From an uncultured Thermoleophilaceae bacterium (GTDB taxonomy: Bacteria > Actinomycetota > Thermoleophilia > Solirubrobacterales > JACPNS01), in assembly GCA_964597975.1 (NCBI GenBank), contig CAZRAA010000003.1, forward strand, positions 185-64,184: DNA of 64,000 bases, in the 5' to 3' direction. The notes beneath the pieces are model-generated. The model ran no database searches, was not told where the DNA came from, and saw only the letters and a program-made list of their open reading frames with translations. A program made the translations under genes and the position numbers. Of this stretch, positions 15,941-34,231 are shown piece after piece. The first letter of the stretch is position 1, and every line of letters begins with the position of its first letter.

Positions 15941-16002
15941 ACGCGGGCGAACGATAGCGCGGCCCCTGCGCGCCGCTGGTCCAATCGCTTTATGATCGGC
16001 CC

Positions 16003-16395
16003 ATGACTTGGATGATCGTCGCCTTCGACGATGACACGCTGGCTGCGGTGCTCGACGACGCTCGCGTGCGCTCGCTCGATGAAGACCGTGGCTTCGTGCT
16101 CGTTACGCCGCGATCGGACCGTTGGGGCAACGAACGATCCAACGGCAGCGAGTATCTGACCGAACTGGGCGAGCGCGTTAACGCCCTGCGGGACGAAGGC
16201 GTTGAGATCGAACACGAGTGGGTGCCGGGTGAAGATCTCGATTCCGAGATCGTCGAAGTCGGCAGGGCGCACGAGGTGGACGGCGTGGTGATCGCACACC
16301 ACAACCCGGGTGAATCGATCCCGGACCCCGAGGCCTTCGATGACATGATTCGCGAGGCGCTCGGCCTCCCGTTGGACGTAATCTCCCTCGAGTGA
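16003..16395 (+). CDS. Hypothetical protein (weak universal-stress-protein-like C-terminus)
   Basis: 130-aa acidic ORF whose stop overlaps the next gene's start (GTGA), supporting translation. Confidence 0.5.
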   Translation: MTWMIVAFDDDTLAAVLDDARVRSLDEDRGFVLVTPRSDRWGNERSNGSEYLTELGERVNALRDEGVEIEHEWVPGEDLDSEIVEVGRAHEVDGVVIAHHNPGESIPDPEAFDDMIREALGLPLDVISLE

Positions 16396-17057
16396 AACTG
16401 CTTCTCGTCCGTCACGGCGAGAGCGAATGGAATGCCGCCGGCAGACTGCAGGGCCAGGCCGATCCGCCGCTCTCAAAACTCGGCCGCCGTCAGGCGGCGC
16501 ACGTCGCCGCGCGCCTGGTCGACGAAGGCGTAGACGCGATCGTCAGCTCTGACCTTGAGCGCGCCGTCGACACAGCTGCTGCGCTGGCCGGCAGTGTCGG
16601 CCTCGAAGTCGCACGACGCGAGGATCTGCGCGAGGTCGATCTTGGCTCGTGGACCGGGATTTCGCGCACGGAAGTTGAGCGGGACGCGCCCGAGTTGTGG
16701 CGGCGCTGGCGGATCGAAGGAATCGAGGGCTGGGACGGCGGGGAGAAATACGCCGACGCGATGGTCCGCATCAGCGGCGCAATCTCGGCACTGGCGGCCG
16801 AACACGAGGGGCAAACCGTCGTCGCGGTCTCGCACGGCGGGTCGATCCGGTTGGCCACCTGCCACCTGCTAGGCATGCCGGCGACCGAACTTGGGCGGAT
16901 CATGTCCATCGGGAATGCGTCGATCACGGAGTTCTTGGTCGAACCGGACGGAACCGGTCGCTTGGTGCGCCTCAACGACAACGCGCACCTGGTCGAGGAG
17001 ACGGCGGCCGACGACCTTGAGCCGATGGGCACGACCGAGTTTGAAAGCGTGCAGTAG
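16392..17057 (+). CDS. Histidine phosphatase family protein (phosphoglycerate-mutase-like)
   Basis: N-terminal LLLVRHGESEWNAAGRLQGQADPPLSKLGRRQA (RHGE motif) and a later VSHGG motif. Confidence 0.85.
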   Translation: MKLLLVRHGESEWNAAGRLQGQADPPLSKLGRRQAAHVAARLVDEGVDAIVSSDLERAVDTAAALAGSVGLEVARREDLREVDLGSWTGISRTEVERDAPELWRRWRIEGIEGWDGGEKYADAMVRISGAISALAAEHEGQTVVAVSHGGSIRLATCHLLGMPATELGRIMSIGNASITEFLVEPDGTGRLVRLNDNAHLVEETAADDLEPMGTTEFESVQ

Positions 17058-17944
17058 TGGCGCCGCGGCTGCGCTCCCGGGCCGACGCGGCGCTTGAGCG
17101 CCATTTCCAGAGCGGTCGTCATTTCACGGCCGCCGGCGTTCAGAGTTTCGTCCTCGATCGCGGTGAAGGAGACCCGGTCGTGCTGATGCACGGCGTTCCG
17201 GCGTCTTCCTTTTTGTATCGAAAGGTCGCGCCGGCAATCGCAGAGCGGGGTCTGAGGGCGGTCTCCTTCGACCTGCCTGGCCTCGGCTTCGCGGATCGCC
17301 CAGAGGACTTTGATTACAGCTGGAGCGGACTCGGGCGCTTCGCCGCCAGCGCGGTCGATGCGCTTGAACTTGACCGATTCCACCTGGTGGTGCACGACAT
17401 CGGCGGGCCCGTCGGTTTTGAACTCGCCGTCGCGCACCCGGATCGCGTCAGATCGATCACGATCCTAAATACGTTGATCGACGTCGATGGCTTTCGAAAG
17501 CCGTGGGTGATGCGGCCGTTCGGCGTGCGCGGTCTTGGAGAGGCGTGGCTCGCGTCGATGAACGCCTATTCGATCGTGCCGCTGATGTGGGCGGTTGGCG
17601 TCTCTGGACCTTCGGCGGTTCCGAGCGCGGAGCTTGCCGCCTACGCGGTCCAGCTGAAAATCGGCGATCGAGGTCGCGCGTTCCTGAAGATCATGCGGGG
17701 GTTCGAGCCGACGAAGGAGAAGGCGCGACAATACTCGGCGGTTGTCGCCCGCGATGACCTTCCGATCGAGATTGTGTGGGGCGAGAAAGATCCAGCGCTC
17801 CCGGCCAGGCGATTTGGCGAGGCCGCACGCAAGCTCGCTCCAACCGCAAACTTCACGGCTGTCCCAGGGCGCCACTTTCTCCAAGAGGAATACCCGGTCG
17901 AGGTGGCTGAACGCGTCGCCGTCGCGGCTGAGCGCGCAGACTGA
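17057..17944 (+). CDS. Alpha/beta-fold hydrolase (haloalkane-dehalogenase/epoxide-hydrolase-like)
   Basis: VVLMHGVPASSFLYRKV (HG oxyanion motif), nucleophile elbow VVHDIGG, C-terminal GRHFLQEE (catalytic His). Confidence 0.85.
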   Translation: MAPRLRSRADAALERHFQSGRHFTAAGVQSFVLDRGEGDPVVLMHGVPASSFLYRKVAPAIAERGLRAVSFDLPGLGFADRPEDFDYSWSGLGRFAASAVDALELDRFHLVVHDIGGPVGFELAVAHPDRVRSITILNTLIDVDGFRKPWVMRPFGVRGLGEAWLASMNAYSIVPLMWAVGVSGPSAVPSAELAAYAVQLKIGDRGRAFLKIMRGFEPTKEKARQYSAVVARDDLPIEIVWGEKDPALPARRFGEAARKLAPTANFTAVPGRHFLQEEYPVEVAERVAVAAERAD

Positions 17945-17989
17945 CGCTGCGCACTCGCGTTCGGCGCCTGCGACCTGTAGTTTCGGGCG

Positions 17990-18382
17990 ATGCGGACACT
18001 CACTCGTTCATTTCTAACCGTGGCAATCTCGCTGATGCTCGCGCTGATCGTCGCCGAGCCGGCCGCCGCCAAGAATTGTCCGGATTTCACCGTTGGGGAA
18101 GCCAATAGCTCTTCCTACCCCGACGGAAAGCTGCCGGCCAAGAAGGTCAGTGCAAAGCACGTCAAGTGCAAGCGGGTGCGCGCTCTGGCCCGCGCCTTCC
18201 ACAAGGGAGACGTGAAGATTCCCGACGACGCCCGCGGCTATGGCGAGTGGGGCGATCGTTTCGAGATCAAGTACGGCGGTCTCAAGTGGCGCTGCAGGCT
18301 CTGGTGGATCGGTGGCTCCGGCCCGTCATACAAATTCCGCTGCTCGTACAACTCGCGCTCGGCCCGTTGGTCGGTCGGCTGA
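17990..18382 (+). CDS. Secreted hypothetical protein
   Basis: Signal peptide MRTLTRSFLTVAISLMLALIVAEPAAA. Four Cys; no known motif. Confidence 0.55.
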   Translation: MRTLTRSFLTVAISLMLALIVAEPAAAKNCPDFTVGEANSSSYPDGKLPAKKVSAKHVKCKRVRALARAFHKGDVKIPDDARGYGEWGDRFEIKYGGLKWRCRLWWIGGSGPSYKFRCSYNSRSARWSVG

Positions 18383-18416
18383 ACCGAGCGGTTCGCAAAC
18401 GCCTAGACTGCGCCCC

Positions 18417-19661
18417 ATGGACTTGCGAGACACGCCTGGGGAGGCGAAGCTCCGCGAAGAGATCCGTGGCTGGCTCGAGGCCAACCACCGGCCGGGCATC
18501 AGCCAAACAGAATGGTTCAAGGTGCTCGCCGACTCCGGCTGGGCGGCGCCGCTCTGGCCAGAGCAGTACGGCGGGCGAGGCGCGAGCCCGAGCGAAGCGA
18601 TCATCTTCAATCAGGAGCGCCAGAAGATCGGCGCAGATCCGCCGCCGCGCGGAATCGGCGTGCCGATGGCCGGTCCGACGATCATCACCCACGGCACGGA
18701 AGAGCAGAAGGCGCGCTTCCTCGGACCGATGCTGCGTGGCGAAGAGATCTGGTGTCAGCTTTTTTCCGAGCCGGGCGCCGGTAGCGATCTAGCCGCGATC
18801 TCGACGCGCGCCGAGCTCAAGGGCGACACTTGGCATGTCACGGGACAGAAGGTCTGGACGACGCACGCCCAACTAGCTCGCTGGGGCATCCTGATGGCGC
18901 GTCACGACCCCGGCCTGCCCAAGCACGCGGGCATCACGTATTTCATCTGCGACATGCAGGCGCCGGGGGTGGAGATCTTTCCGCTCAAAGAGATGACCGG
19001 CGAAGCGGTCTTCAACGAGGTCTTTCTCAGCGACGTAGAGATCCCCGACGATCTGCGCGTCGGCGCCGTCGGCGAGGGCTGGAAGGTCTCGATGACGACG
19101 CTTGCCAACGAGCGCATGGCGCTCGGTCTCGGGGGCCTTGGCGGCGCCGCGGAAGATGCGCCGATCGACCTTGAGGAAGCCGACGCCGAGTCTTCGCTTG
19201 AGACGATGGGCAAGTTCATCGCGCGCGGGCCACGCGCGCTGATCGAGCTGACCGAGCGCGCCGGTGTGATCGACGACCCACTCGTGCGCGACGAGCTTGC
19301 GCGTGTCTACACGATGTACGAGGTCAATCGCTTCACCGGCTACCGCGTCACGTCGGCGCTGATGAAGGGACAGAACCCCGGGGTCGAGGCCTCGACCGGA
19401 AAGCTTGCCTACAACCTGCTGGTGCGCGCCGTCGCCGACTACATGATCACGATCGCCGGAGTTGGCGCGCTTGGCGCCCCGGAGGACGACAAGCTGATCA
19501 AGGTGGCCGAGCGGCTCAATCTGGTGGTCCCGGCGACCTCGATCTACGGCGGCACGGATCAGATCCAGCGCAACATCATCAGTGAGCGCGTGCTGGGGAT
19601 GCCCAAGGAACCACGCACCGACGCCGAGCAGCCGTTTTCCGAGATCAAGAAGGGCGGCTGA
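18417..19661 (+). CDS. Acyl-CoA dehydrogenase family protein
   Basis: Start trimmed to ATG 18417 (MDLRDTPGEAKLREEIRGWL). ACAD middle and C-terminal domains present, e.g. IYGGTDQIQRNIISERVLGMP. Confidence 0.85.
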   Translation: MDLRDTPGEAKLREEIRGWLEANHRPGISQTEWFKVLADSGWAAPLWPEQYGGRGASPSEAIIFNQERQKIGADPPPRGIGVPMAGPTIITHGTEEQKARFLGPMLRGEEIWCQLFSEPGAGSDLAAISTRAELKGDTWHVTGQKVWTTHAQLARWGILMARHDPGLPKHAGITYFICDMQAPGVEIFPLKEMTGEAVFNEVFLSDVEIPDDLRVGAVGEGWKVSMTTLANERMALGLGGLGGAAEDAPIDLEEADAESSLETMGKFIARGPRALIELTERAGVIDDPLVRDELARVYTMYEVNRFTGYRVTSALMKGQNPGVEASTGKLAYNLLVRAVADYMITIAGVGALGAPEDDKLIKVAERLNLVVPATSIYGGTDQIQRNIISERVLGMPKEPRTDAEQPFSEIKKGG

Positions 19662-19662
19662 A

Positions 19663-20805
19663 TTGGACTTCTCGTTCAACGACACGCAGCGCGAGATCCA
19701 GGAGGGCGCCAAGCGGTTGCTTGAGGAGACCGCCGCGCTCGACCAGGTGGTTGCGCTGACCGAGACCGAGCGCGGCTGGGATCCGGACGCTTACAAGCAG
19801 ATCGCCGAACTGGGCTGGACCGGTCTGCACATTCCGGAGGAGCTAGGCGGCATCGGCCTGTCCTATGTCGAGCTGATCGTCGTGCTCGAGCAGATGGGTC
19901 AGGTGCTCTATCCCTCGCCGTTCTTCTCCAGCGTTTGCCTGGCCGCCAACGCGCTTGTCGAAGGCGCGTCGGCCGCGCCGCTCGCTGAGGAGAACTTGGC
20001 GTTGCTCGCTGGGATCGCGTCGGGCGAGCAGACCGCGACGCTGGCCTACACCGAACCCGGCGGCCGCTACCGCCCTTCGGATGTTCGGCTCCAGGCACGC
20101 CGCGACGGCGATGACTACCTGCTCTCGGGAACGAAAAACTATGTGGTCGACGGACACACCGCAGATGCGATCGTGACCGTCGCGCGAGACGGGGATGACG
20201 AAGGCAATGTCGTGCTCCTGACCGTGCCGGGAGACGCAGCCGGGCTACACCGCGAGCAGGCGCACGCGGTCGATCCGACGCGGCGCCTGGCAACGTTGCG
20301 CTTTGAAGACGTTCGCGTGCCGAGTTCGGCCGTGGTTGGAGACCCGGGGGATGGCATGGCCACCCTGCGGCCGACGATGCAGCTCGCTGCCGTCGCGCTC
20401 GCGGCCGAATCGCTCGGCGCGGCGCAGCACTGCTTTGACACAGCGCTCAGCTACACGAAGGATCGCTACCAGTTCGGGCGTCCGATCGCGTCATTCCAGG
20501 CTGTCAAGCACATCTGTGCTGACCTGCTGATGGCCGTAGAGGCGGCGCGCAGCGCGTCCTACTACGCCGGATGGGTCGCCGCCGAGCAGCGCGAGGAGCT
20601 CGCACAGGTGGCTCCGCTGGCCAAAGCGCAGGCGTCGGAGAGTTTTTGGGAGCTCGCCCGCGCGAACATCCAGCTCCACGGCGGAATCGGCTTTACGTAC
20701 GAGCACGAAGCGCACTACTACTACCGGCGCGCGACATCGTCGCGGGCTCTGCTGGGTGGCACAGCCGAGCATCGCGAGTTGCTGCTTCAGGCGCTGGGCG
20801 CCTGA
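19663..20805 (+). CDS. Acyl-CoA dehydrogenase family protein (likely partner subunit of the upstream ACAD)
   Basis: TTG start at 19663, 1 nt after the upstream stop (LDFSFNDTQREIQEGAKRLLEE). ACAD C-terminal pattern QLHGGIGFTYEHEAHYYYRRA. Confidence 0.85.
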   Translation: MDFSFNDTQREIQEGAKRLLEETAALDQVVALTETERGWDPDAYKQIAELGWTGLHIPEELGGIGLSYVELIVVLEQMGQVLYPSPFFSSVCLAANALVEGASAAPLAEENLALLAGIASGEQTATLAYTEPGGRYRPSDVRLQARRDGDDYLLSGTKNYVVDGHTADAIVTVARDGDDEGNVVLLTVPGDAAGLHREQAHAVDPTRRLATLRFEDVRVPSSAVVGDPGDGMATLRPTMQLAAVALAAESLGAAQHCFDTALSYTKDRYQFGRPIASFQAVKHICADLLMAVEAARSASYYAGWVAAEQREELAQVAPLAKAQASESFWELARANIQLHGGIGFTYEHEAHYYYRRATSSRALLGGTAEHRELLLQALGA

Positions 20806-20808
20806 AGC

Positions 20809-23800
20809 TCACCGCACGATGCGGAAGCTCCGCCCGACCACGCTCGGCTCGGCGTCGCCGACAATCATCCGGACGCGGTAGCGGCCAGGGGTCAACGCCC
20901 GTCCGCGCGCCCTTCCGGTGATGTAGATCGTCGAACGACCGCCCGGCAACTCGAATCTTTGCCAGTTCGACACCCGCGATGAGCTGTGACCGCGGCTCAG
21001 GCGTTCGATGCTCAAGCGCACGACCCCGCGGGACCCGAGCGTGACATCGAACTTAGCGGCAGAGCGCTGCTTGCTCTTGGAGAACACCGAGCCCCTGCGT
21101 AGCGGCCGCAACCGACCTGGGGTGAGTCCCGTGATCGCGGCGGCTGCTGCATCGACACGATCGCCTGACTCGGAGTAGTTGACGATCAGCGCGTCGGCAC
21201 CAACGCTGCCGTATGCGTCGGTGCACCGCACCTCGATTGCGTTGACTCCAGGCGCGAGCGCGACGATGACGCCGGAGGTGGAGCCGGTTGGCGCACCGTC
21301 CACGCTGCAGCCGGTGCCGGCGGGAATCGCTGCCGAACCATCAACAAGGAAGCTGACCGCCACGGACGGCAGTTCGCTCACAGTGCCGCTCGCGGGGGAG
21401 ACAATCGCCACCGTAGGAGCCGGCACTCGCGTGACGGATACCGATTCTGTGCTCTTGCCGAACTCGTTTGCGCAGGCGACCGTGATTGGGTTGGCCCCTG
21501 GCGAAAGCGCCACTTCGATGTCATCCGTGGCCGAAGCGGGTACGCCGTCGACGCCGCAGGTCGTGCCGAGGGGAATTGTCGTTGAACCGTCGACCGAGAA
21601 GCTGATCGACGCCATCGCCAGCGAAGTGGTCGAGTTGTCTTCCGGAGCGGTGATCGCGAGGAGCGGCGCGCTTCCGCGCTCCACGGTTATCGCAGCGGAG
21701 TCGGCGCCGAATGTATTGGTGCAGTTGACCATTATTGGGTTGCTGCCCGACTCGAGTGCGACGTTGTTCGCACTTGCTCCAGGCGAAGGCGCGCCGTTGA
21801 CGGTGCAGCTGGTGCCGATCGGAATCGCCGATCCGCCGTCAACGGTGTAGTTGATGTCGATCGACTCTGCGACGGTCTTCAGACCATCGACTGGAGTCAC
21901 GATCGCCACGTTTGGCGGTGACCCGCGTTCAACGTTCACCGTCATCGCGCCGGTGCCGAACGCATTCGCGCAACTGACCGTCAATTGATTGACACCGAAA
22001 CTCAAAGAAACGACGTTGGCTGTCGTGCTCGTCGAAGGACTTCCGGCCACGCTGCAGCTGGTGCCGTCGGGGATCGCCGCCGAGTCGCCCACCGTGTAGG
22101 CGACGTTTATCGACGCGGCGGTGGTGACCCCGCTGCCTCCTGGCGCAACGATCGTCACGACTGGACTATTGCCGCGATTGACCACCACGCTCGCCGGGGA
22201 TCCCGCGCCGAAGGCATTCGAGCAGCCGACGGTGATCGTGTTGGCACCGACATTCAGACTGACCGCGTTGGTTGTCGCGCTCGACGTGCCGGTGCCATTC
22301 ACCGTACAGCTCGTGCCTGCCGGGATCGTGGCGCCACCGTCAACGGTGAAAGCGGCGTTGGTACTGCTTGCGGTCGTGTTCGTGTTGCTCACGGGCGACG
22401 CGACCGCAACCACCGGGACTGCGCCGCGGTTGACGTTGACCACAGCAGCCAAGCCAGGGCCGAAAGCGTTGGTGCACGCGACAACGATGGCGTTTGCGCC
22501 GCTGTTCAGTCCGACCGAGTTGACCGCTGTATTCGTCGAGCTTGCGCCATTGACTGTGCAGGTCGTCCCTGCCGGAATTGAGCTTCCGCCGCCCACGGAG
22601 TAGCTGACGTTGGTCGAGGAAGCGGTCGTGTTCGTATCGGCGGCCGGCGAGGTGATGGCGACCACCGGGACGGCGCCTCGGTTCACCGTGACCGACGCGG
22701 GAGTACTCGCGCCGAACGCGTTGGTGCAGGTGACGGTGATCGTGTTGGCGCCGCTGTTCAGGCTGACCGAGTTGACGGTTGTGCTCGTCGAGCTTGCGCC
22801 ATTGATCGTGCAGGCGGTTCCTGCCGGGATCGAACTTCCGCCGCCCACCGCGTAGGTCACGTCTATAGAAGCGGCCGTGGTGTTTGTGCCGTCGGCCGGC
22901 GCCGTGATCGCGACCGTCGGCACACTGCCTCGGTTGACCGTGATCGGCCCCGCAGCGCCGCTGCCGAATGCGCTCACGCAAGCCACCGAGATCGAGTTGG
23001 CGCCGCTGATCAGGCTGACCGAGTTGGTCGCGCCGGACGTTGAAGTGCCGCCGGCCACCGTGCAGACCGTGCCTGCCGGGATCGCGGTGGATCCGTCGAC
23101 CGTGTAGGCGACATTGATCGAACTTGCGGTGGTGTTCGAGTTGTTTGCTGGAGATGTCAGCACCACGGTCGGCGCGGTGCCTCGGTTGACAGTGACCGAT
23201 TTGCTGTCACTCCCGAACGCGTTGCTGCAGCTGACTGTGATCGTGTTGGCGCCGTTAGTGAGGCTCACCGAGTTGGATCCCGTGCTGGTCGAGTTCGCGC
23301 CATTGACGGTGCAGGTTGTGCCCGCAGGGATCGAACTTCCGCCGCCCACGGTGTAGGTGGTGTTGACCGAAGCGGCCGTGGTGTTTGTGCCGTCAGCCGG
23401 AGCGACGATCACGACTGCGGGGCCGTTGCCGTAGTTCACGTTCACGGCGCTACTACCGGGGCCATAGGCGTTGGTGCAAACGACGGTGATCGGATTGGCA
23501 CCGGGTGTGAGCGCAACAGAGTTGGCAGACGTGCTGGTCGAGTTTGCGCCGTTGACAGTGCAGGTCGTTCCCGCCGGGATCGAGCTTCCGCCGCCCACTG
23601 TGTAAGTCACATTGACGGGTGTCGCCGCGCTGTTCGTGTTGTTGGCCGGCGACGTGATTGCTACAGCCGGCACCGAACCGCGATTGACCGTGATGGCGCT
23701 CGAACCGCTGCCGAAGGCGTTGGAACAGGCAACAGTGATCGTGTTCTGACCGTTGGCCAAGCTGACCGAGTTGGACCCCGTGCTGGTCGATCCCGCGCCG

Positions 23801-26604
23801 CCTACGGTGCAGGTGGTGCCGATCGCTATCGACGAAGAGCCGTTCACGGAGTACGAAACGTTGATCGTCGAGAAGGTGGTGTTGGCGCCGTCGATTGGCG
23901 AAGTGATTGCCACCACAGGCACGCTGCCGCGGTTCACAGTGATCGATGCGGGGGCACTCGCACCGAAGGCATTGCTGCAGTTCACAGTGATCGTGTTGGC
24001 GCCGCTTGTCAGGCCGATCGAGTTGGCCCCCGTGCTGGTCGAGCTCGCGCCATTGACCGTGCAGGTGGTTCCTGCCGGGATCGTGTCCCCGCCGCCCACC
24101 GAGTAGGCGACGTTCGTCGCCTCACTGGTCGTGTTGCTGTTGTTGGCGGGAGCGGTGATCGCGACGACCGGCGCGTCCCCGCGGTTGACGGTCACGGCTT
24201 TGCTGTCGTTGCCATAGGTGTTCGAACACGCGACGGTGATCGTGTTGGCGCCGACGCTCAGGCCGACGGAGTTGGTCGTCGCACTCGCGGTACCAGCGCC
24301 GCCAACCGTGCAGGTCGTGCCTGGGTTGATCGCGCTACCGCCGTTGACGGTGAACGCAACGTTGGTGGTGGCGGAGGTCGTGTTTGAGTTGTTCGCCGGC
24401 GCGCTGATCGCAACCACCGGGGCGACTCCGTAGTTGACGGTGACGGATTTCGTTGCCGGACCGAATGCATTGGCGCAGGCCACGGTGATTGTGTTGGCGC
24501 CGCTGGTCAGGTTGACCGAGTTGGCCGCAGTGCTGGTCGAGTTTGCGCCATTGACGGTGCAGGCGGTTCCTGCTGGGATCGAGCTTCCGCCACCCACCGT
24601 GTAAGAGACGTTGACCGAGCCGCTCGTCGTGTTCAGGCCGCTTGAGGGCGAAGTGATTGCCACCGTCGGCACAGCACCTAGGTTGACCGTGACCGATGCG
24701 CTGGCCGAGCCGAAGGCGTTGCTGCAGGCAACCGTCAGGGTGTTGGCGCCGGACGCCAAGGTCACGGGGTTGGTCGACGTGCTCGTGGTGGCCCCTCCGC
24801 CAACGGTGCACGTGGTGCCTGCCGGGATCGATCCGTCGCCGTTCACCGTGAAGCTGACGTTGGCCGATGCGCTCGTCGTGTTGCTGTTGTTCGCCGGCGC
24901 GCTGATATTGACGATCGGCGCAGAGCCGCGATTCACATTGATGGCGCTTGAACTACTGCCGAACAAGTTGGAGCACGAAACGGTGATCGAGTTTGCGCCG
25001 CTGGCCAGGCTGACAGAGTTGACCCCGGTGCTGGTCGAGCTTGCGCCGCCCACGGTGCAGGTGGTTCCTGCCGGGATCGTGGCACCACCGCTCACCGTGT
25101 AGGCGACGTTGATCGAGCTGGCGGTCGTGTTGGTGTTGTTCGCAGGTGATGAAATGGCGACCACCGGAGGCGTCCCGCGGTACACGGTGACCGAGGATGC
25201 GGCAGCGCGGCCGACCGAGTCGGTGCAGGAGACGGTGAGCGTGTTCGCGCCGGTGCTGAGGGCGATCGTCGACCCGCTGGCGGGCGTGCAGTTCGGACTG
25301 CCGACATCATCGGTCGCCGTGTAATTGAGCTGGGTCGTGGACTGCGTGGTTCCGGAGCCGTTGGCCGGAGATGAGATTGCGATGGTCGGCGGCGCGGCGT
25401 CACGCCAAACGGTGATGCTGTCCGAACCGGCATTGCCCGCATGGTCGAAACAGGTGACGACGACCGTGTTTGCACCGGGGCTCAGCGCAACGCTGGCTCC
25501 GCTCGCAAGCGTGCAGCTCGCAAGTCCGACGTTGTCCGTCGCTGAGTAGTTGACTGCAATCGTCGCGCTGGTCGTGACGAGCCCGGAGGCGGGCGACGAG
25601 ATCGAAACCACTGGGGCGGCGGGGACCGCGCCGGTATCGAACCCGAAACTGTGAATCGCATCGACGATCGCGTTGGCGGTCACACTCGCGCCGAGCGGCG
25701 TGTTGTGCAGCGCTATGCCGGGGTACTGGAGACCCTGCTGGTACGTATGCGGGTTCATCCAGCGGGCACTCCAGCTCGTCTCGCAGGCAGTATGCGCGGT
25801 GCCAGAGATCCCCTGCATGTCGACGAACTTCGCGTAGTTGCCGCCAACGGAGGCGTTGAAGGCATTCACATCCTCGATCATCGCCTGCCGCACGCCCTCT
25901 TCCCAGGTTGCGTAGAGCGGCGCATCGGCTGCGGTCAGCCAGAACTCGCTGCTAAAGCACTGCGAACCGGAGGGCTCAGCGATTCGCGGCGTGCCCATCA
26001 GGAGAATCTTCGCGTTCGGCGAGATCTGGTGAATTCGGGTGAGCGCGGACGCGATCTTTGTCTTTGAGATCGCGACGTAGCTGGGAATCTGATTGACCCC
26101 GTTGACCAGATAAGTGTCGCTGCAGTGGTTGGGGATCGGCCAGGGCGCCTGTTGCGGGAAGTCGCGGTTGTGGAAGAACGCGTCGATCGCCGGCTGATAG
26201 CCAGTGCAGTCGTAGGCGATCTTGCCGAAAAACGCCTCGTTGCTGCCCGAGCCCACGATCACGATGTCTTCGCTGCCGTTGAGCGAGTTGTACTGCGGCG
26301 GGATCGCAGCGCCGCTGGGACCGGTCCAGCCATACTGGAAGTTATCTGCGGTCGTGCCGTTGCAGGTTGCGTTCTTCCACGTGCCGTGCGCGACCCGCGC
26401 CATCGCGAGTTCCGGATAGCCGCCCGTCGACTGGCCGCAATCGGCGATTGACCCGGGAACCTGCGGACCGAGCCACTGGCCCGAGGCAAGTGAATCACCC
26501 ATAGCGACGACGCGCCCGAGCGGGGCGGCGGAGGCCGTCGCAGAGAGCGACAGCAGCGCCGCCAGCAGGGCGGCCAGAAATGCGGTCCTTATATGAGTGT
26601 GCAT
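20809..26604 (-). CDS. Giant secreted protein (1931 aa): signal peptide + SEST-like SGNH/GDSL hydrolase + 18 tandem Cys-pair Ig-like repeats + conserved C-terminal module
   Basis: Signal MHTHIRTAFLAALLAALLSLSATASA. SGNH block I VVAMGDSLASG, block III GSGSNEAFF, block V GIALHNTPLGA. 18 repeats of ~82 aa (aa ~331-1812). 119-aa tail ending GRYRVRMIVGDAEPSVVGRSFRIVR. Confidence 0.9.
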   Translation of the reverse strand: MHTHIRTAFLAALLAALLSLSATASAAPLGRVVAMGDSLASGQWLGPQVPGSIADCGQSTGGYPELAMARVAHGTWKNATCNGTTADNFQYGWTGPSGAAIPPQYNSLNGSEDIVIVGSGSNEAFFGKIAYDCTGYQPAIDAFFHNRDFPQQAPWPIPNHCSDTYLVNGVNQIPSYVAISKTKIASALTRIHQISPNAKILLMGTPRIAEPSGSQCFSSEFWLTAADAPLYATWEEGVRQAMIEDVNAFNASVGGNYAKFVDMQGISGTAHTACETSWSARWMNPHTYQQGLQYPGIALHNTPLGASVTANAIVDAIHSFGFDTGAVPAAPVVSISSPASGLVTTSATIAVNYSATDNVGLASCTLASGASVALSPGANTVVVTCFDHAGNAGSDSITVWRDAAPPTIAISSPANGSGTTQSTTQLNYTATDDVGSPNCTPASGSTIALSTGANTLTVSCTDSVGRAAASSVTVYRGTPPVVAISSPANNTNTTASSINVAYTVSGGATIPAGTTCTVGGASSTSTGVNSVSLASGANSITVSCSNLFGSSSSAINVNRGSAPIVNISAPANNSNTTSASANVSFTVNGDGSIPAGTTCTVGGGATTSTSTNPVTLASGANTLTVACSNAFGSASASVTVNLGAVPTVAITSPSSGLNTTSGSVNVSYTVGGGSSIPAGTACTVNGANSTSTAANSVNLTSGANTITVACANAFGPATKSVTVNYGVAPVVAISAPANNSNTTSATTNVAFTVNGGSAINPGTTCTVGGAGTASATTNSVGLSVGANTITVACSNTYGNDSKAVTVNRGDAPVVAITAPANNSNTTSEATNVAYSVGGGDTIPAGTTCTVNGASSTSTGANSIGLTSGANTITVNCSNAFGASAPASITVNRGSVPVVAITSPIDGANTTFSTINVSYSVNGSSSIAIGTTCTVGGAGSTSTGSNSVSLANGQNTITVACSNAFGSGSSAITVNRGSVPAVAITSPANNTNSAATPVNVTYTVGGGSSIPAGTTCTVNGANSTSTSANSVALTPGANPITVVCTNAYGPGSSAVNVNYGNGPAVVIVAPADGTNTTAASVNTTYTVGGGSSIPAGTTCTVNGANSTSTGSNSVSLTNGANTITVSCSNAFGSDSKSVTVNRGTAPTVVLTSPANNSNTTASSINVAYTVDGSTAIPAGTVCTVAGGTSTSGATNSVSLISGANSISVACVSAFGSGAAGPITVNRGSVPTVAITAPADGTNTTAASIDVTYAVGGGSSIPAGTACTINGASSTSTTVNSVSLNSGANTITVTCTNAFGASTPASVTVNRGAVPVVAITSPAADTNTTASSTNVSYSVGGGSSIPAGTTCTVNGASSTNTAVNSVGLNSGANAIVVACTNAFGPGLAAVVNVNRGAVPVVAVASPVSNTNTTASSTNAAFTVDGGATIPAGTSCTVNGTGTSSATTNAVSLNVGANTITVGCSNAFGAGSPASVVVNRGNSPVVTIVAPGGSGVTTAASINVAYTVGDSAAIPDGTSCSVAGSPSTSTTANVVSLSFGVNQLTVSCANAFGTGAMTVNVERGSPPNVAIVTPVDGLKTVAESIDINYTVDGGSAIPIGTSCTVNGAPSPGASANNVALESGSNPIMVNCTNTFGADSAAITVERGSAPLLAITAPEDNSTTSLAMASISFSVDGSTTIPLGTTCGVDGVPASATDDIEVALSPGANPITVACANEFGKSTESVSVTRVPAPTVAIVSPASGTVSELPSVAVSFLVDGSAAIPAGTGCSVDGAPTGSTSGVIVALAPGVNAIEVRCTDAYGSVGADALIVNYSESGDRVDAAAAAITGLTPGRLRPLRRGSVFSKSKQRSAAKFDVTLGSRGVVRLSIERLSRGHSSSRVSNWQRFELPGGRSTIYITGRARGRALTPGRYRVRMIVGDAEPSVVGRSFRIVR
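21169..25614 (-). repeat. Coding tandem repeat array, 18 units of ~246-252 bp
   Basis: I aligned the units by eye. Consensus: (A/V)P.VAI(T/S)(A/S)PA..(S/T)NTT(A/S)S..NV.(Y/F)(T/S)V.GG..IPAGT.C(T/S)V.G..(S/T)(S/T)...N.V.L..GAN.I.V.C.NAFG......V.VNRG. The DNA motif GATCGTGTTGGCGCCG recurs every ~250 bp (e.g. near 22740, 23240, 23990, 24240, 24490). Confidence 0.9.
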
Positions 26605-26739
26605 GACGTTGGTGCGTCCGAGTCCCCTGCCGAGGGGGGTCTGGACGAGACTACAGCCGCGGCGTCATCTTGGCCACTCGATGGCACGCGGATGCCGACC
26701 CCGCTAGACCCGAACAGAGGCGCCTGCGCCTGAATCCTC

Positions 26740-29700
26740 TCAGCGCGTCACTCGAAACACTTTGCTCACCGCGCGCAGCTTCGTGCCGCGCACGCTGACC
26801 ACCACGCGATAACGCCCAGCGACGAGCGCGCGCTTGTCCGTCCGGCCGGAGAGCCGGGCCGTAGATGTTCCGGGCTTCAGCGCGAGCGTGCCGCGCCCGG
26901 CCAGCTTGACCTTCGCCGGACCGCTGGCGCTGAGGCGCTCTATACGAACGTCGACATCTGCCTCCGCGTCGAGCTTGATCTGCAGCTTGAGACCGCCACG
27001 CGCGCTGCTCTTCAGGAACATTCCGCCGCGCTTGAGGGGTTTTAGCTTTGCCGGGGCACCGAGCTTCACCGAGATGCTCTTCGGCCCGAGGTTGGGAGCG
27101 GGATCCGGCGGATCCACCGGCGGCGCCGGCGGCGTCGGTGGCGGCGTGTACGCGACGTAGACGCTCGCAAAGCCGACCCCGAAGGCGCTGGTGCAAACAA
27201 CAGTCACCGTGTTCAGCCCGACGGCCAGCTCGATCGGGTTGTGATCCGGGTCGGTCGAGGGCATCCCATTGATCGTGCAACTGGTGCCATCAGGCACTCC
27301 CTCGAGACTGTCAACCGAGAACTTCGCCTCGACGAACTTCGCGGGCGTTTCGGTGTACGCGTCGGCGTGGATGTAGACGAGCGGCAACGTCCCGCGATTG
27401 ACGGTTATCGCCTTGGTGTCCGACCCGAAGGCACTGGTGCAAGAAACGGAAACCGTGTTGGTGCCCGGGCTGAGCTCGATCGTCAGCGGACTCTCGGCCT
27501 GGTTGCCGTTGACCGTGCAGGTTGCTGCGGCGCTGCCGCCGGCACTGAATGAAACGCTCACGGAGCTGCCGAGCGTGTTTAGCCCGTCAGCGGGGCTGGT
27601 GATTGCGACGCTCGGGGCGGTGCCGCGTTCGACCGTCACGAACTTTGTGTCTTCGCCCAGCGAGTTGGCGCATTTCACGCCGATCACGTTCGACCCGATT
27701 GTCAGCGGGAACGAATTCGTTGAAGTGCTGGCCGATGCCTGCCCGCCGACGGTGCAGTTGGTGCCGGCCGGGATCGTGCTCGAGCTGTTGACGGTGAAGA
27801 CGACGTTGGTCTGCGTCGCGGTTGTTTGTGCGCCGTTGGCCGGTGCCGTGATCGCGACGATCGGACCGTTGCCGCGCGTGACGCTGACCGAACCGCTCCC
27901 GCTGCCGAAGACGCTGTTGCATGAGACCGTGATCGCGTTGGCTCCAACCGCCAGCGAAACCGTGTTGGTGGTCGCGCTGCTGGTACCCGACCCGGCGACC
28001 GTGCAACTCGTGCCCGCGGGGATCGAGCCTGCGCCATCGACCGTGAAGGCGACGTTCACCGAGGTCGAGGAGGTCACCGTGCCGTCAAGCGGCGCGAGCA
28101 CCGCGACGACCGGCGGGTTGCCGCGGTTGACCGTCACCGAGACCGGAGCGCTGACGCCGTAGGCATTCTCACAGGAAACGAAGATCGTGTTTCCGCCGAT
28201 TGCCAGCGGCACGGAGTTGGCGCCGGGGGTGGTGGAGGCGACCCCGCCGACGCTGCAAGTTGTTCCACCCGGGATCGAGCCACTCCCGCCGACCGTGTAG
28301 GTGAGGTTGATCGAGCTTGCAGTCGTGTTCGTGTTGTTAGACGGCGCCGTGATCGAAACTACGGGCACAGCTCCGCGATTCACTGTGATGCTCGCCGGCG
28401 AGCTCGATCCGAAGGCATTGGTGCAGACCACCGTGATCGTGTTGCTTCCAATCGACAGTGCGACTGAGTTGGTGGTCGTGCTCGAGCTGCCCGCGCCGTT
28501 TACGCTGCAGGTGGTGCCTTCAGGGATCGAGCTTTCGCCGCCGACGGTGTAGATCACGTTCGTCGACGCGCTCGAGGTGTTCGAGCTAGCTGCCGGCGAA
28601 GTAACCGCTACGACGGGAACGGCGCCCCGATTGACCGTGACCGCCGTCGGGGCGCTCGCTCCGAAGGCGTTCGAGCAGGACACCGAGATCGTGTTGCTGC
28701 CGGTTGCGAGTGCGACGCCGTTGACGGAGGTGCTGTTCGAAGCGATGCCGCCCACGCTGCACGTGGTGCCGCCCGGGATCGAGCTGCCGCCGCCGACGGT
28801 GTAGGCGACGTTGATCGAGCTTGCCGTCGTGTTTGTGTTGTTTGCCGGTGCCGTGATCGCGACTTCCGGGACGCTGCCGCGCGTGACGTTCACGCTCGCC
28901 GGTGTGCCCGTGCCGAACTGATTGGTGCAGCTCACCGTGAGCGTGTTGGAGCCGACGCTCAGTGGGGTGCTGTTGGTGGTCGCGCTGGAAGAAGCAGCCC
29001 CGGCCACGGTGCAGCCTGTTCCCGCCGGAATCGAAGCAGCGCCGCCAACCGTGTAGGCGACGTTGATCGACGAGGCGGCAGTGCTCGCGCCGTTGGCCGG
29101 CGTGGTGATTGCGACGCTCGGAGGGTTGCCGCGATTGACGGTGACGGTCGCGCTCTTTGGGCCGAAGGCTCCGACGCAGTTGACCGTGATCGTGTTCGTC
29201 CCGATGCTGAGTGCGGCCGAGTTGCTCGCAGTGCTGCTCGAAGCCGTTCCGTTGACCGTGCAGTTTGTGCCGCCCGGAATCGAGCTCGACCCGTTGACCA
29301 GGTAGGTCACGTTGATCGAAGCGGCGGTCGTGTTCGTGCCGTCGGCGGGCGCCGTGATCGCCACCTCCGACGGCGGACTCCCGGTTACGTTGACGGTCGA
29401 CGGATTGCTGCTGCCGAACTGGTTGGTGCAGACGACCGAGATCGTGTTTGCTCCCTCCGCGAGAATCACGCTGTTCGAACTCGTGCTGCTCGTCGCATTA
29501 CCGTTGACCGTGCAGCTCGTGCTCGCCGGGATCGATGCGCCGCCCCCGACGGTGAAGGTCACGTTGATGGTTGCGGCGGTTGACTGGAGCCCGCTGGCAG
29601 GTGAGGTGATCGCAACGACCGGGACGCTTCCGCGGTTGACGGTGACCGCCGCCGTCGCTGCGTTGCCCGCGGTGTCGGTGCAGTTCACGGTCAGCGTGTT

Positions 29701-31140
29701 GGCGCCGACGCTGAGCGCGACGCTCGATCCGTTTGCCGGCGTGCAGTTGGGCGAGCCGAGGTTGTCGCTCGCGGTGTAGCTGAGCGTCGTCGAGGATGCA
29801 GTGGTGTTGCTGTTGTCTGCCGGGCTGTTGATCGTGACCGACGGCGGGGTGCTGTCGCGAGTCACCGTGACCGATGCGGTGCCGTGGTTTCCGGCGTGGT
29901 CCTGGCAGTCGACGGTGATCGTGTTGGAACCGGGATTCAGGTTCACCGAGGAACCGCTTGCCGGCGTGCAGCTGGCGACGGCCACGTTGTCGCTCGCGGT
30001 GTAGCTGATCGTGGTGGTGGCGTTCTTTGTCAGCGAGTTGTTCGCCGGTGCGCTGATGGTCACCACGGGATCGGTTGCGTTGGTTGCCTGCGAGCCGGTG
30101 TCGAGGCCGGCGGCGCGCATCGCGTCGATGATCGCGTTGGCCATCGCGTTGGCACCGGCCGGTGTGTTGTGCAGCGCGATTCCCGGGTAGGTGACACCGG
30201 GTTCAACGCTCCACGGGTTGATCCACTTCTGACTCCACGACGCGGCGCACATCGTGTGGGACGTGCCGGAAATCTCTTGGACATCGACAAACCGTGCCCA
30301 CGAACTGCGCGCCGCGACCACACGCTTCATCGCCAGGCGCAGCTGGTCCTCCCAAACCGCATAGACCGGCGCGTCGGCAGGTGTGAGGATCGGGTTGGGC
30401 ATGCAGCCGGCGCCGTCGGGCGTGGCCAGGCGCGGGATGCCGACCAGGAAGACCTTGGCGTTGGGTGACTTCTGGTGGATCTGGTCGAGCGCAGGACCAA
30501 CGAGCGACTCTGAGTTGTTGATCTTGGAAAGCAGGCCACTTCCGTTGGCGCCGTAGGTCCTCAGGCAGTTGTTCCAGTAGTCGACGTTCTGACCCTGGAG
30601 CTTGGCGGCGTACACGTTGAGGTCTGGCTGGTAACCGAGGCAGGCGAATGCGACCTCCCCGAAGTAGGCCTCGTTACCCCCGGTGCCGACGATCACTGCC
30701 TGCTCGGAGCCGATCAGCGCATTGAACTGCGGCGGGATCGTCACACCGTTGTTTTCGGGAATGTTCAATCCCGGGTTCGTGCTGCTGAAGACGCCTGTGT
30801 GGCCGCCGTTACAGGTGACGTCCGCGAAAGCACTGGCGCTGAGTCGCGCCTTTGCCAGCTGCGGATAGCTGCCGGTGGTGCGACCGCAGGCAGGGTTGGG
30901 ATTGGACTCACTGACGGGAAATGTCGGACCGAGGCCCATCCCTGAGGCCATCGAGTCGCCGATCGCCACGACGCGCCCGAGCGCCGCATCGGACGCCGCT
31001 GGAAGCGCGCAGAGGGCGGCGGTCGCCGCGATCACGGCAACGATCGATCTAGACACTCGCTTGGTCGATTCAGTCAAGGGATTCAGTTGCTTGGCGCCGT
31101 CCTGCCGAGACGCATGCGCGCCGGCGTTGCTTCCAAGCAC
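26740..31140 (-). CDS. Giant secreted protein (1466 aa): SEST-like SGNH hydrolase + 12 tandem Cys-pair Ig-like repeats + Pro-rich linker + conserved C-terminal module
   Basis: VVAIGDSMASG, GTGGNEAYF, GIALHNTPAGA. 12 repeats (aa ~357-1331), linker TPPPTPPAPPVDPPDPAPN, 116-aa tail ending GRYRVVVSVRGTKLRAVSKVFRVTR. GTG start at 31140; an alternative GTG at 31056 gives VSRSIVAVIAATAALCALPAASDA. Confidence 0.9.
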   Translation of the reverse strand: MLGSNAGAHASRQDGAKQLNPLTESTKRVSRSIVAVIAATAALCALPAASDAALGRVVAIGDSMASGMGLGPTFPVSESNPNPACGRTTGSYPQLAKARLSASAFADVTCNGGHTGVFSSTNPGLNIPENNGVTIPPQFNALIGSEQAVIVGTGGNEAYFGEVAFACLGYQPDLNVYAAKLQGQNVDYWNNCLRTYGANGSGLLSKINNSESLVGPALDQIHQKSPNAKVFLVGIPRLATPDGAGCMPNPILTPADAPVYAVWEDQLRLAMKRVVAARSSWARFVDVQEISGTSHTMCAASWSQKWINPWSVEPGVTYPGIALHNTPAGANAMANAIIDAMRAAGLDTGSQATNATDPVVTISAPANNSLTKNATTTISYTASDNVAVASCTPASGSSVNLNPGSNTITVDCQDHAGNHGTASVTVTRDSTPPSVTINSPADNSNTTASSTTLSYTASDNLGSPNCTPANGSSVALSVGANTLTVNCTDTAGNAATAAVTVNRGSVPVVAITSPASGLQSTAATINVTFTVGGGASIPASTSCTVNGNATSSTSSNSVILAEGANTISVVCTNQFGSSNPSTVNVTGSPPSEVAITAPADGTNTTAASINVTYLVNGSSSIPGGTNCTVNGTASSSTASNSAALSIGTNTITVNCVGAFGPKSATVTVNRGNPPSVAITTPANGASTAASSINVAYTVGGAASIPAGTGCTVAGAASSSATTNSTPLSVGSNTLTVSCTNQFGTGTPASVNVTRGSVPEVAITAPANNTNTTASSINVAYTVGGGSSIPGGTTCSVGGIASNSTSVNGVALATGSNTISVSCSNAFGASAPTAVTVNRGAVPVVAVTSPAASSNTSSASTNVIYTVGGESSIPEGTTCSVNGAGSSSTTTNSVALSIGSNTITVVCTNAFGSSSPASITVNRGAVPVVSITAPSNNTNTTASSINLTYTVGGSGSIPGGTTCSVGGVASTTPGANSVPLAIGGNTIFVSCENAYGVSAPVSVTVNRGNPPVVAVLAPLDGTVTSSTSVNVAFTVDGAGSIPAGTSCTVAGSGTSSATTNTVSLAVGANAITVSCNSVFGSGSGSVSVTRGNGPIVAITAPANGAQTTATQTNVVFTVNSSSTIPAGTNCTVGGQASASTSTNSFPLTIGSNVIGVKCANSLGEDTKFVTVERGTAPSVAITSPADGLNTLGSSVSVSFSAGGSAAATCTVNGNQAESPLTIELSPGTNTVSVSCTSAFGSDTKAITVNRGTLPLVYIHADAYTETPAKFVEAKFSVDSLEGVPDGTSCTINGMPSTDPDHNPIELAVGLNTVTVVCTSAFGVGFASVYVAYTPPPTPPAPPVDPPDPAPNLGPKSISVKLGAPAKLKPLKRGGMFLKSSARGGLKLQIKLDAEADVDVRIERLSASGPAKVKLAGRGTLALKPGTSTARLSGRTDKRALVAGRYRVVVSVRGTKLRAVSKVFRVTR
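27148..30072 (-). repeat. Coding tandem repeat array, 12 units of ~243-252 bp, same family as 21169-25614
   Basis: Same consensus as the array in the upstream paralog. The first two units are of the distinct S(A/Y)T(A/D)(S/T)DN(V/L)G..(S/N)CTP type in both genes. Confidence 0.9.
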
Positions 31141-31195
31141 GCCGAATCAGCTTATTGCGGAATGTGCACGTTCGCAAGCAGTCGAAAGCGCCCGT

Positions 31196-32869
<1,674 letters not shown>

Positions 32870-34231
32870 TTACTTGACGGTCTTGAACGAATCCGTGGTC
32901 GGAGTGGCGACGTGCAGTGACTCGCTGCGCAGGCGTATCCGAAACCTGCCAGGAGTGAGCCGCCGTCCTGCCGCCCGGCCGGTGACGTAGATCTTTGTTG
33001 CGCCCTTGGGCAGGTACGCGTTCCACCATCCGCCGCGCGATGCGACGCGTGAGCAGTGCTTTGCCGACCGGTTGCTGCGACTTATCGCGCGGCACTTGCC
33101 GTTGACCAGCCTGCCGGACCTCACGCTCTCCAACTTGAGGCCGACGGTTGCCACCTCGTCGAGCGTGAGCGTGACGGCCGCGCCGCCGCGCAGCGGAGCA
33201 TTACGCGAGAAGACCGAGCCGCTGGGGGCAGGACGCAGCTTTGCGAACTTGAGGTCTTCGATCCGCGCTTCGGATCCCAGATAGAGGCCGGCGCCGCGCA
33301 TCGCCTCGGTAACCATGTTTGCGACCGCATCGGCCCCGGCAGCGCTCGGATGCAAACCAATACCGGTGCTCCCGCCGACGACCGGGTTGGTCCAGCGCTG
33401 GGCGGCCGGGGACGCGCAACCGGTGTGGGAGCCCGACTGTGAGTACGCGTCGACGAAATAGGCGCCGTGGGATGCTGCGGTCTCGCGAAGCGTGTCGTTG
33501 ACGGCGACCTCCCACTGCTCAAAAACAGGCGCGTCGGTCTGGGTCAGCCACATCAACCCCGAACAGCCGCCGACGTTCGTCGGCGCTATGTCGAGGTAGC
33601 CGACGACGAAGACTTTGGCCTTCTTGGATTTGTTCTTGATTGCGTCGATCGATTTCCCGACGTTGGTGGCGATCGACTGGCCGCGGGCGATCAGGCTGTT
33701 GACGCCGCCGCTGACGTAGGTCTGGGTGCAGACATTCGCGTTTGATCCGCCGTGGTAGAGGCAGTTGTTGGTCACTTCGCCAAAGCCCGCGTCGTTATCG
33801 CCGACCGAGAGCAGCACGGCCCGTTCGGTGCCATTGAGCGCGTCGAGCTGCGCGCGGGCACGGTCGCCGCTGCCGGGGAAGGTGAAGCCCGAAAACAAGC
33901 TCGAGGTCGTCGCGCCGCTGCAGGTTTCATTGACGAACTCGCCGTAGACGATGCGTTGCGCCACAAGCGCGGGGTAGCCGCCGCTCGTGCGCTCGCACTC
34001 AGAAGGCGATCCCGGGTACTTGGGGCCCAGGCTTGGACCGCTGGCCGAGGAGTCGCCGAGCGCCACGACGCGCCCGAGACTTGCCGCGGCATCGCCGGTG
34101 GTTGCGCAGGCGGCAACGGCGAACGCGCAGGAAACCGCCAGCGCAAAGGCGATCATCCGGATCGCGTTCGAATAGAGAGGCTTGTCGTGCTTCATCGAGG
34201 GGTCTGGAACCACAAACGCCGCCGGGCGCAA
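32870..34231 (-). CDS. Secreted SEST-like SGNH hydrolase fused directly to the conserved C-terminal module (453 aa; no stalk)
   Basis: [30 protein letters not shown]. Tail with a Cys-pair insert (NGKCRAISRSNRSAKHC) ending PGRFRIRLRSESLHVATPTTDSFKTVK. An alternative ATG at 34195 gives MKHDKPLYSNAIRMIAFALAV... Confidence 0.85.
   Translation of the reverse strand: MRPAAFVVPDPSMKHDKPLYSNAIRMIAFALAVSCAFAVAACATTGDAAASLGRVVALGDSSASGPSLGPKYPGSPSECERTSGGYPALVAQRIVYGEFVNETCSGATTSSLFSGFTFPGSGDRARAQLDALNGTERAVLLSVGDNDAGFGEVTNNCLYHGGSNANVCTQTYVSGGVNSLIARGQSIATNVGKSIDAIKNKSKKAKVFVVGYLDIAPTNVGGCSGLMWLTQTDAPVFEQWEVAVNDTLRETAASHGAYFVDAYSQSGSHTGCASPAAQRWTNPVVGGSTGIGLHPSAAGADAVANMVTEAMRGAGLYLGSEARIEDLKFAKLRPAPSGSVFSRNAPLRGGAAVTLTLDEVATVGLKLESVRSGRLVNGKCRAISRSNRSAKHCSRVASRGGWWNAYLPKGATKIYVTGRAAGRRLTPGRFRIRLRSESLHVATPTTDSFKTVK

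Follow-up and report, generated by a model that had tools for sequence, protein, structure and literature searches.

Tandem Ig-like repeats as a predicted stalk between an SGNH esterase head and a conserved basic tail in an uncultured actinobacterium

In a stretch of 64,000 nucleotides from an uncultured Thermoleophilaceae bacterium (GenBank assembly GCA_964597975.1, contig CAZRAA010000003.1, positions 185 to 64,184; the whole stretch is called the window below), a long tandem array of immunoglobulin (Ig)-like repeats is encoded at positions 21169-25614. It was found that this region corresponds to residues 331-1812 of a single minus-strand open reading frame (ORF), here named gene A, whose product consists of a signal peptide, an SGNH esterase head, 2 + 16 Ig-like units, and a basic C-terminal tail, in this order. 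An earlier reading of the same DNA, made from the letters alone (the sequence-only reading), had described the repeats; the present analysis adds their context: an esterase head precedes them, and a conserved tail follows. The gene A product appears to be a secreted esterase of this uncultured soil-type actinobacterium, and the repeats appear to be its long stalk. It is probable, on balance, that the array is a passive, rod-like, disulfide-stabilised spacer that fixes the distance between the esterase and the tail, and that the tail holds the protein on the cell envelope. The protein would be secreted through its Sec signal peptide with the SsEst-like head N-terminal to the stalk. The 18 Ig-like domains, each probably stabilised by a disulfide and joined head-to-tail without linkers, would then form an extended rod, which may do nothing but set the head-to-tail distance. 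The basic tail would most likely bind the anionic cell envelope, so that the esterase might act at a fixed distance from the cell.

The strongest argument for a spacer role is that the head and the tail are constant while the middle is interchangeable: nothing, collagen-like triplets, Ig-like units, or Big_13 domains. Gene A is one of four adjacent minus-strand paralogs (genes A to D, 20809-34231) which have the SGNH head and the tail in common and differ in their spacers. The tail was recognised in all four by a hidden Markov model (HMM) with E values from 1e-38 to 4e-27, and the window contains no other full match. Gene B, the upstream neighbour of gene A, has an Ig-like stalk of its own; with 18 units in gene A and 12 in gene B, the two genes contain 30 units, the number that had been counted from the sequence alone. 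In gene C, the spacer is a run of 27 uninterrupted G-x-y triplets, mostly G-E/P/A-T (residues 309-389; window 31640-31882), corresponding to arrays that Tandem Repeats Finder (TRF) located at 31645-31886. The gene C product matches Lipase_GDSL_2 (4e-18), Collagen (2e-9; 37.5 bits versus a cutoff of 27.2), and the tail HMM (4e-27), and it would be a trimer if the triplets form a triple helix. In gene D (Lipase_GDSL_2, 5e-18; tail HMM, 3e-29), whose start codon is uncertain, the head is joined directly to the tail.

The same pattern extends beyond the window. The cluster and its flanking genes are syntenic in three metagenome-assembled genomes labelled Solirubrobacterales or Actinomycetes (L001, L002, and L006), and one of them, L002, has instead one long paralog with a Big_13/Big_6-type stalk. 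GDSL plus tail proteins of 441, 542, 667, 785, and 1054 residues were found in the databases, with intermediate numbers of stalk domains. Four paralogs differing essentially only in the spacer amount to a natural experiment, which argues for distance-setting and not for binding. The replacement of the array in the paralogs also gives indirect support to the earlier view that the repeats are a spacer rather than a binding module. The spacer role is further supported by the scarcity of aromatic and charged residues in the stalk, and by a ratio of nonsynonymous to synonymous substitutions (dN/dS) above that of the head (see below).

The spacer lengths in Table 1 are estimates that assume about 4 nm for each Ig domain and 0.29 nm for each residue of collagen. 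I tentatively propose that the four proteins could make up a "molecular ruler" set, in which one esterase head and one undescribed basic anchor, the latter a new widespread family, are combined with spacers of ~0, 23, 48, and 70 nm. If this is true, the same chemistry may be placed in concentric layers, for instance across a thick capsule or sheath, or into a polymeric ester like plant cuticle. Selection would keep one paralog at exactly 12 domains, with the other free to vary from 9 to 18. The tail would represent a C-terminal surface anchoring or sorting family of Thermoleophilia-like Actinomycetota with ~2800 clusters at 50% identity.

The units of gene A were delimited by cutting at their Cys anchors. 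Two Cys pairs with a spacing of 21 residues are followed by sixteen with a spacing of 28, and these positions bear out the 18 tandem units of the sequence-only reading. From Cys516 to Cys1766, the 28-spaced pairs return with a period of 83 or 84 residues. The main units (units 3-18) are thus sixteen repeats of 83-84 residues (249 or 252 bp), while units 1-2 have 72-75 residues; the unit length of ~82 residues given earlier was slightly off, and the distance of about 35 residues between the two Cys was too large. Each main unit has a C-x27-C pair, and the units are joined without linkers (…VNRG-xxP-VVAI…). TRF returned periods of 252 (score, 644) and 249 (score, 565), and a repeat search detected 20-25 in-register copies at 249/252-nt spacing, spanning genes A and B. 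The ~250-bp periodicity noted before is therefore real and far above chance. The alignment of the units reproduced the consensus of the sequence-only reading and gave vtVnrG..P.Vait.Pa...ntta.s.nv.ytV.g...Ip.GT.CtV.G..s.st..nsv.L..G.NtitV.C.nafG for the main units, and the motifs N-T-T, I-P-x-G-T, and G-A-N-T-I, which lie in loops, are conserved in every unit. The reported richness in Thr, Ser, Asn, Gly, Ala, and Val and the paucity of charged and aromatic residues were also found in the repeat region (T+S+A+V+G+N, 77%; D+E+K+R, 4.2%; F+Y+W, 2.7%). N-x-S/T sequons are not enriched over composition (35 observed versus 36.4 +/- 4.9 in shuffles).

The units belong to existing Pfam families. Glucodextran_B (PF09136) matches gene A with 131.4 bits in 8 stretches and gene B with 98.5 bits (gathering cutoff, 27). 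Cadherin-like (PF12733) overlaps the same stretches with 87.7 and 62.6 bits, respectively (gathering cutoff, 24.2). A single main unit scanned alone scores 20.9 bits for Glucodextran_B, which is under the threshold. Units 1-2 (residues 331-471) match Big_7 (PF17957) with 37 bits in 2 stretches (gathering cutoff, 24.1), as well as Glucodextran_B with 39 bits, above its cutoff. HYR (PF02494) scored only 10.5 bits on these two units (E=0.82; gathering cutoff, 21.7). The identity is 53% between units 1 and 2 and about 40% between these two and the main units, and the main-unit HMM gives units 1-2 31 bits versus more than 100 bits for the main units. Units 1-2 form a real, though related, subtype; the distinction made in the sequence-only reading stands, while its HYR-like label has to be dropped. 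Database loci from Saccharibacteria and Woesearchaeota (L003-L005) match the Big_7-type units only.

A three-unit fragment was modelled with AlphaFold2 from a 42-row alignment of such fragments, taken from genes A and B and from homologous proteins. In this all-beta model, each unit has 7-8 strands, and the units adjoin without linkers (predicted local distance difference test score (pLDDT), 96.5; predicted template modelling score (pTM), 0.78). Foldseek found 369 matches in the PDB at E<=1e-3, with tandem Ig rods on top; among these are GhpA, titin I67-I69, sidekick, and PTP-delta (E values from 1e-8 to 1e-6; template modelling (TM) score up to 0.51 over three domains). The model and its matches agree with the Ig-like beta-sandwiches proposed earlier. 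The two Cys are invariant in all 26 main units of genes A and B. Among 605 homologous domains collected with the unit HMM, 426 have both Cys, 141 have neither, and 38 have one only. Since both or neither are present in 567 of the 605 domains (94%), and since the protein is predicted to be secreted, each domain probably has one disulfide. Together with the invariance of the Cys, this pattern favours the single disulfide per beta-sandwich that had been suggested.

The signal peptide, as read by eye from the translation, has a basic n-region, a hydrophobic core, and an A-S-A site, and it lacks a lipobox Cys. The head scanned alone matches Lipase_GDSL_2 with 37 bits (cutoff, 32.9) and aligns with the Streptomyces scabies esterase SsEst (PDB 1esc; matched chain, 306 residues), the GDS and GxN blocks being paired in the alignment (E=8e-6). 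The GDS (block I), GxN (block III), and LH(N/P) (block V) motifs and the head cysteines are kept in all four paralogs. Lipase_GDSL_2 is the sole non-stalk Pfam domain in gene A, with no known adhesive domain among the matches. A homologue has already been named "GDSL-type esterase/lipase family protein" by NCBI. By its profile match and conserved blocks, the head is an SsEst-like SGNH hydrolase and a predicted esterase.

The C-terminal tail is a conserved domain of ~110 residues. Its net charge is +18 in 115 residues in gene A and ranges from +12 to +22 per 115 residues across proteins, the rest of each protein being acidic. It has no match in Pfam or NCBIfam, anchor domains included. The AlphaFold2 model of the tail is a beta-sandwich (pLDDT, 92.5) with structural matches to generic V-set Ig domains only (TM score, about 0.5), and the tail profile found nothing under E=0.38 among PDB sequences. 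A profile of 21 tails was searched against 1.84 billion cluster representatives, and 2782 of these matched at E<=1e-3. In nearly all proteins with a single match, whose lengths range from about 100 to more than 2000 residues, the domain ends at the last residue. A Pfam scan of 20 such proteins revealed GDSL esterases, a thermolysin-like M4 peptidase, RTX, FG-GAP and other beta-propellers, and PKD as partners. Neither an LPXTG motif nor a hydrophobic C-terminal anchor is visible in the sequences of genes A-D. Since it is a strictly C-terminal and strongly basic module on many unrelated extracellular proteins, I infer that the tail may be a non-covalent envelope anchor or a sorting domain. Some copies of the tail carry an extra Cys-Cys hairpin insertion. 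The product of a plus-strand gene at 11758-13206 matches the tail HMM weakly and only in part (E=0.07).

How old is the array, and how does its length change? The units are 33-72% identical to each other at the protein level (mean, 52.5%; adjacent units, 57% on average) and 45-76% at the DNA level (mean, 60%; third codon positions, 47%). The longest exact DNA match shared by two units is 27 nt at most, with a median of 11 nt, and it attains 20 nt in only 11 of 325 pairs. The sequence-only reading had suggested that short identical blocks could support recombination; this is weakly founded, as such blocks are little above the expectation from 60-75% identity and do not exceed 27 nt. Whole-unit insertions and deletions (indels) between orthologues do occur. 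The orthologues of gene A are 76-86% identical to it. When compared with the one in L001 (86% protein identity), units at the same position have 80-89% DNA identity, while off-diagonal pairs have ~60%. Concerted evolution of the units was rejected on the basis of this clear unit-by-unit orthology. The synonymous distance (dS) is uniform along the gene at ~0.33, and dN/dS is lowest in the head (0.09), followed by units 1-2 (0.13), with values of 0.27-0.34 in the main units and 0.27 in the tail. The array is old, has not been homogenised, and evolves under moderate purifying selection. The mean DNA identity of 60%, the positional orthology, and the uniform dS speak against a recent amplification, as had been argued from the sequence alone.

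Gene A and its L001 orthologue differ by exactly one unit of 83 residues (unit 16), and in other orthologue pairs the difference is exactly two units, or 166 residues. At the junctions of these indels the flanks are too dissimilar for an assembly collapse; those of the A/L001 indel have an identity of 43% and share no identical run longer than 5 residues. Nine A-type orthologues (heads 76-96% identical to that of gene A) have from 9 to 18 units. In contrast, 12 units were counted in every one of eleven database B-type proteins (heads 57-100% identical to that of gene B, which is itself one of the eleven). The homologues in this comparison were P0009, P0012-P0015, and P0017-P0021 versus P0001-P0010. 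In a neighbour-joining tree of the units, A3-A13 mostly fall in an A-only clade, while tail-proximal units pair across genes (A14-B9, A15-B5, and A18-B11); the tree is weak, being built on 83 columns with no resampling. It suggests that the central part of the array may have expanded in the A lineage. As a whole, the array changes in length only when one or two whole units are gained or lost in register, which is rare. The L001 orthologue has an 84-nt exact tract common to units 10 and 12, which looks like a local gene-conversion patch. The contigs of two proteins, P0001 and P0002, are identical over 16 kb except for a 501-nt deletion, which removes exactly the stretch between the two copies of this tract and has its junction in it; one contig was assembled with megahit k127 and the other, at 6.5x coverage, with SPAdes. 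P0002, whose contig matches L001 apart from the deletion, represents the only same-strain length difference; it was considered as a two-unit copy-number variant and rejected as unreliable.

These data bear on other explanations of the array. The variation from 9 to 18 units among relatives, a long tandem array of folded domains between an N-terminal functional domain and the C-terminus, and the 84-nt tract with the two-unit-shorter P0002 would all suit a Periscope-type protein, in which recombination of near-identical DNA repeats rapidly changes the repeat number within a population and tunes surface display. This is very improbable. The repeat identity of 33-72% (protein) and 45-76% (DNA) is well under the defining level of at least 80% (PMC8201768), the longest exact inter-unit match in the window is 27 nt, and units remain positionally orthologous at dS ~0.33 without homogenisation. 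As for P0002, zero mismatches over 16 kb between the products of two assemblers are more simply explained by a collapse across the 84-nt repeat. It is also improbable, if somewhat less so, that the repeats are a multivalent ligand-binding adhesin or lectin array to which the esterase is an accessory. The loop motifs conserved in every unit, the purifying selection on the units (dN/dS, 0.27), the B-type paralog that keeps exactly 12 units across distant orthologues, and the occurrence of related folds (cadherin-like and Big) in adhesins would all fit such an array. However, binding faces are usually richer in both aromatic and charged residues than the 2.7% and 4.2% found here, and paralogs exchange the array for nothing, for collagen-like triplets, or for an unrelated Big_13 stalk while they keep the head and the tail. 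Moreover, the A-type orthologues vary in unit number, and the head is the most constrained part of the protein.

The alternative that deserves the most attention, unlikely as it is, concerns the tail. The protein might be a freely released enzyme whose basic tail targets a substrate, the Ig-like array being a very long inter-module linker with no role in surface display. The lack of LPXTG, of any recognised anchor, and of a visible hydrophobic C-terminal anchor is in line with release, and so are the generic Ig-like structural matches of the tail and its occurrence on many secreted hydrolases (M4 peptidase and GDSL), a pattern known from substrate-binding modules. Glucodextran_B and Cadherin-like are also typical accessory domains of secreted glycan-active enzymes. 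On the other hand, it is unusual for a free enzyme to have a linker of 12-18 folded domains, the tail is also found on non-enzymatic RTX, FG-GAP, and PKD proteins, its strict confinement to the extreme C-terminus across hundreds of architectures is more typical of anchoring or sorting, and its high positive charge suits anionic cell-wall polymers. The passive spacer on an envelope-bound esterase is favoured here, and several points weigh against it. The retention of the protein on the cell is deduced from the tail, which has no characterised relative and could equally bind a substrate or serve as a sorting signal. The whole gene A protein scores 32.3 bits for Lipase_GDSL_2, just under the cutoff of 32.9, and both the esterase activity and the substrate of the head are predictions. 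The rigidity and length of the rod are extrapolations, based on a model of three domains and on domain sizes from textbooks, and the conserved surface motifs (NTT and IPAGT) could reflect binding and not purely structural loops. All sequences compared are metagenome assemblies, and at least one apparent copy-number variant, P0002, is probably an assembly collapse.

Table 1. Positions of gene A, its parts, its paralogs, and related loci (window coordinates unless a locus is named), with estimated spacer lengths.
Feature	Position	Strand	Description	Estimated spacer length
Gene A	20809..26604	minus	1931 aa; ORF and translation, Pfam architecture; 18 Ig domains	about 70 nm
Sec-type signal peptide	26527..26604	minus	aa 1-26, MHTHIRTAFLAALLAALLSLSATASA then APLG; read from translation	
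Predicted SGNH/GDSL hydrolase head	25615..26526	minus	SsEst-like, 6 Cys, ~aa 27-330	
Stalk units 1-2	25174..25614	minus	aa 331-477, Big_7-type, Cys 364/385 and 439/460	
Stalk units 3-18	21175..25173	minus	aa 478-1810, sixteen 83-84-aa Ig-like domains	
C-terminal tail domain, gene A	20812..21153	minus	aa 1818-1931, ends FRIVR	
Gene B	26740..31140	minus	1466 aa; head and tail, 2 + 10 Ig units (12 Ig domains)	about 48 nm
Gene C	31196..32806	minus	536 aa; head and tail, collagen-like triplets as spacer	about 23 nm
Gene D	32870..34231	minus	<=453 aa; head joined directly to tail, no spacer	none, 0 nm
Tail copies, genes A to D	20812-21153, 26743-27084, 31199-31588, 32873-33250	minus	conserved Ig-like, ~110 aa	
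L001 orthologue gene	L001 5043-10586			
L006 gene	L006 6001-11046			

Some observations on the cluster and its surroundings may be added. Gene B is identical to the database protein P0013. Its annotated GTG start adds about 28 residues (31056-31140) that are absent from the orthologue P0009, which begins with MRVSRSIV…; the true start is probably near 31056. The signal region of gene D (~34090-34160), where the start codon is uncertain, reads …AFAVAAC-ATTGD… and by eye resembles a lipobox (V-A-A-C). The spacer-less gene D product might be a lipoprotein. NCBIfam gave no match for gene A or gene D, and only sub-threshold matches to collagen adhesins for gene C. A promoter and terminator scan of 20500-34600 returned counts at the level of shuffled sequences and gave no information on operon structure. 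The downstream neighbours, which are conserved with the cluster (window 14933-20805; L006 11050-16530), encode two acyl-CoA dehydrogenases, an alpha/beta hydrolase, a histidine phosphatase, and a glpX-type fructose-1,6-bisphosphatase. On the other side, a minus-strand ORF of 651 residues at 34398-36353 has no Pfam match and an extremely R/D/E/H-rich translation; it looks like an antisense artefact of the plus-strand genes at 34401-35558 and 35703-37124. Two more proteins of the window, both beta-propellers, are likely to be secreted (11758-13206 and 37037-38209, plus strand); one has NHL and thrombospondin type-3 repeats, and the other is Vgb-lyase/SGL-like.

Giant secreted proteins of bacteria with a stalk of tandem Ig-like domains are well known, and existing Pfam families cover the units. 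What is moderately novel is the series of spacers in four paralogs, the occurrence of one paralog of fixed length beside another of variable length, and the unannotated but widespread tail. The contrast between 12 units in the B-type proteins and 9-18 in the A-type proteins suggests that selection can act on the length of the stalk.

SsEst itself is secreted as a free esterase of one domain. Like SsEst and other SEST-like SGNH hydrolases, the head has the GDS serine block, the GxN oxyanion block, a C-terminal His, and several conserved Cys; unlike SsEst, it is fused to 0-18 stalk domains and the C-terminal tail. A literature search for SGNH esterases on Ig-like stalks found no relevant paper. 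As for the stalk, the main units pass the whole-protein thresholds of Glucodextran_B and Cadherin-like, while the C-x27-C pair and the 16-fold linker-less tandem are features of the present subfamily. The best structural matches, the grappling-hook protein GhpA of Aureispira (PDB 9flx, 9flv, and 9g8b) and the titin I-band (2rik), are also extended chains of small Ig domains. However, their identity to the units is 11-17%, with TM scores of 0.45-0.51 over three domains, and their contexts (a contractile predation apparatus and muscle, respectively) are unrelated. Paralog C resembles the streptococcal Scl1 and Scl2 proteins in having a G-x-y stalk between a globular head and the C-terminus, and it has partial matches to their NCBIfam models NF038329 and NF038330 (E=4e-14 and 3e-12; 52 bits versus a cutoff of 325). 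It differs from them in being far below these family cutoffs, in lacking LPXTG, and in having an SGNH esterase as the head.

Gene A also resembles the fibrillar adhesin-like proteins as they are presented in the main text of a survey by Monzon et al. (2021, PMC8286594), in which an N-terminal functional domain is followed by a run of Ig-like stalk domains and the C-terminus. In contrast to those proteins, the gene A head is a conserved SGNH hydrolase, with no known adhesive domain, and the words "GDSL" and "Glucodextran" are absent from that main text. According to the same text, nearly half of the fibrillar adhesin-like proteins have no recognisable anchor. The tail described here, with which thousands of secreted proteins of many kinds end, is a candidate for such missing anchors.

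Periscope proteins (SasG, Rib, and the SHIRT domains of Sgo_0707; Whelan et al. 2021, PMC8201768) are defined by repeats that are at least 80% identical. Like gene A, they are secreted by Gram-positive bacteria and consist of a rod of folded domains that projects an N-terminal functional domain, with the number of domains differing between relatives. Unlike Periscope proteins, gene A has repeats that are 33-72% identical, positionally orthologous, and not homogenised, indicating slow length change; its head is a predicted enzyme and not an adhesin, and an unannotated basic domain takes the place of LPXTG. Judged by the sequence features that define Periscope proteins and fibrillar adhesins, gene A appears to belong to neither class. 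Rather, it indicates that indels of whole domains occur even when the repeats are only ~60% identical at the DNA level, which extends the Periscope idea beyond repeats of high identity.

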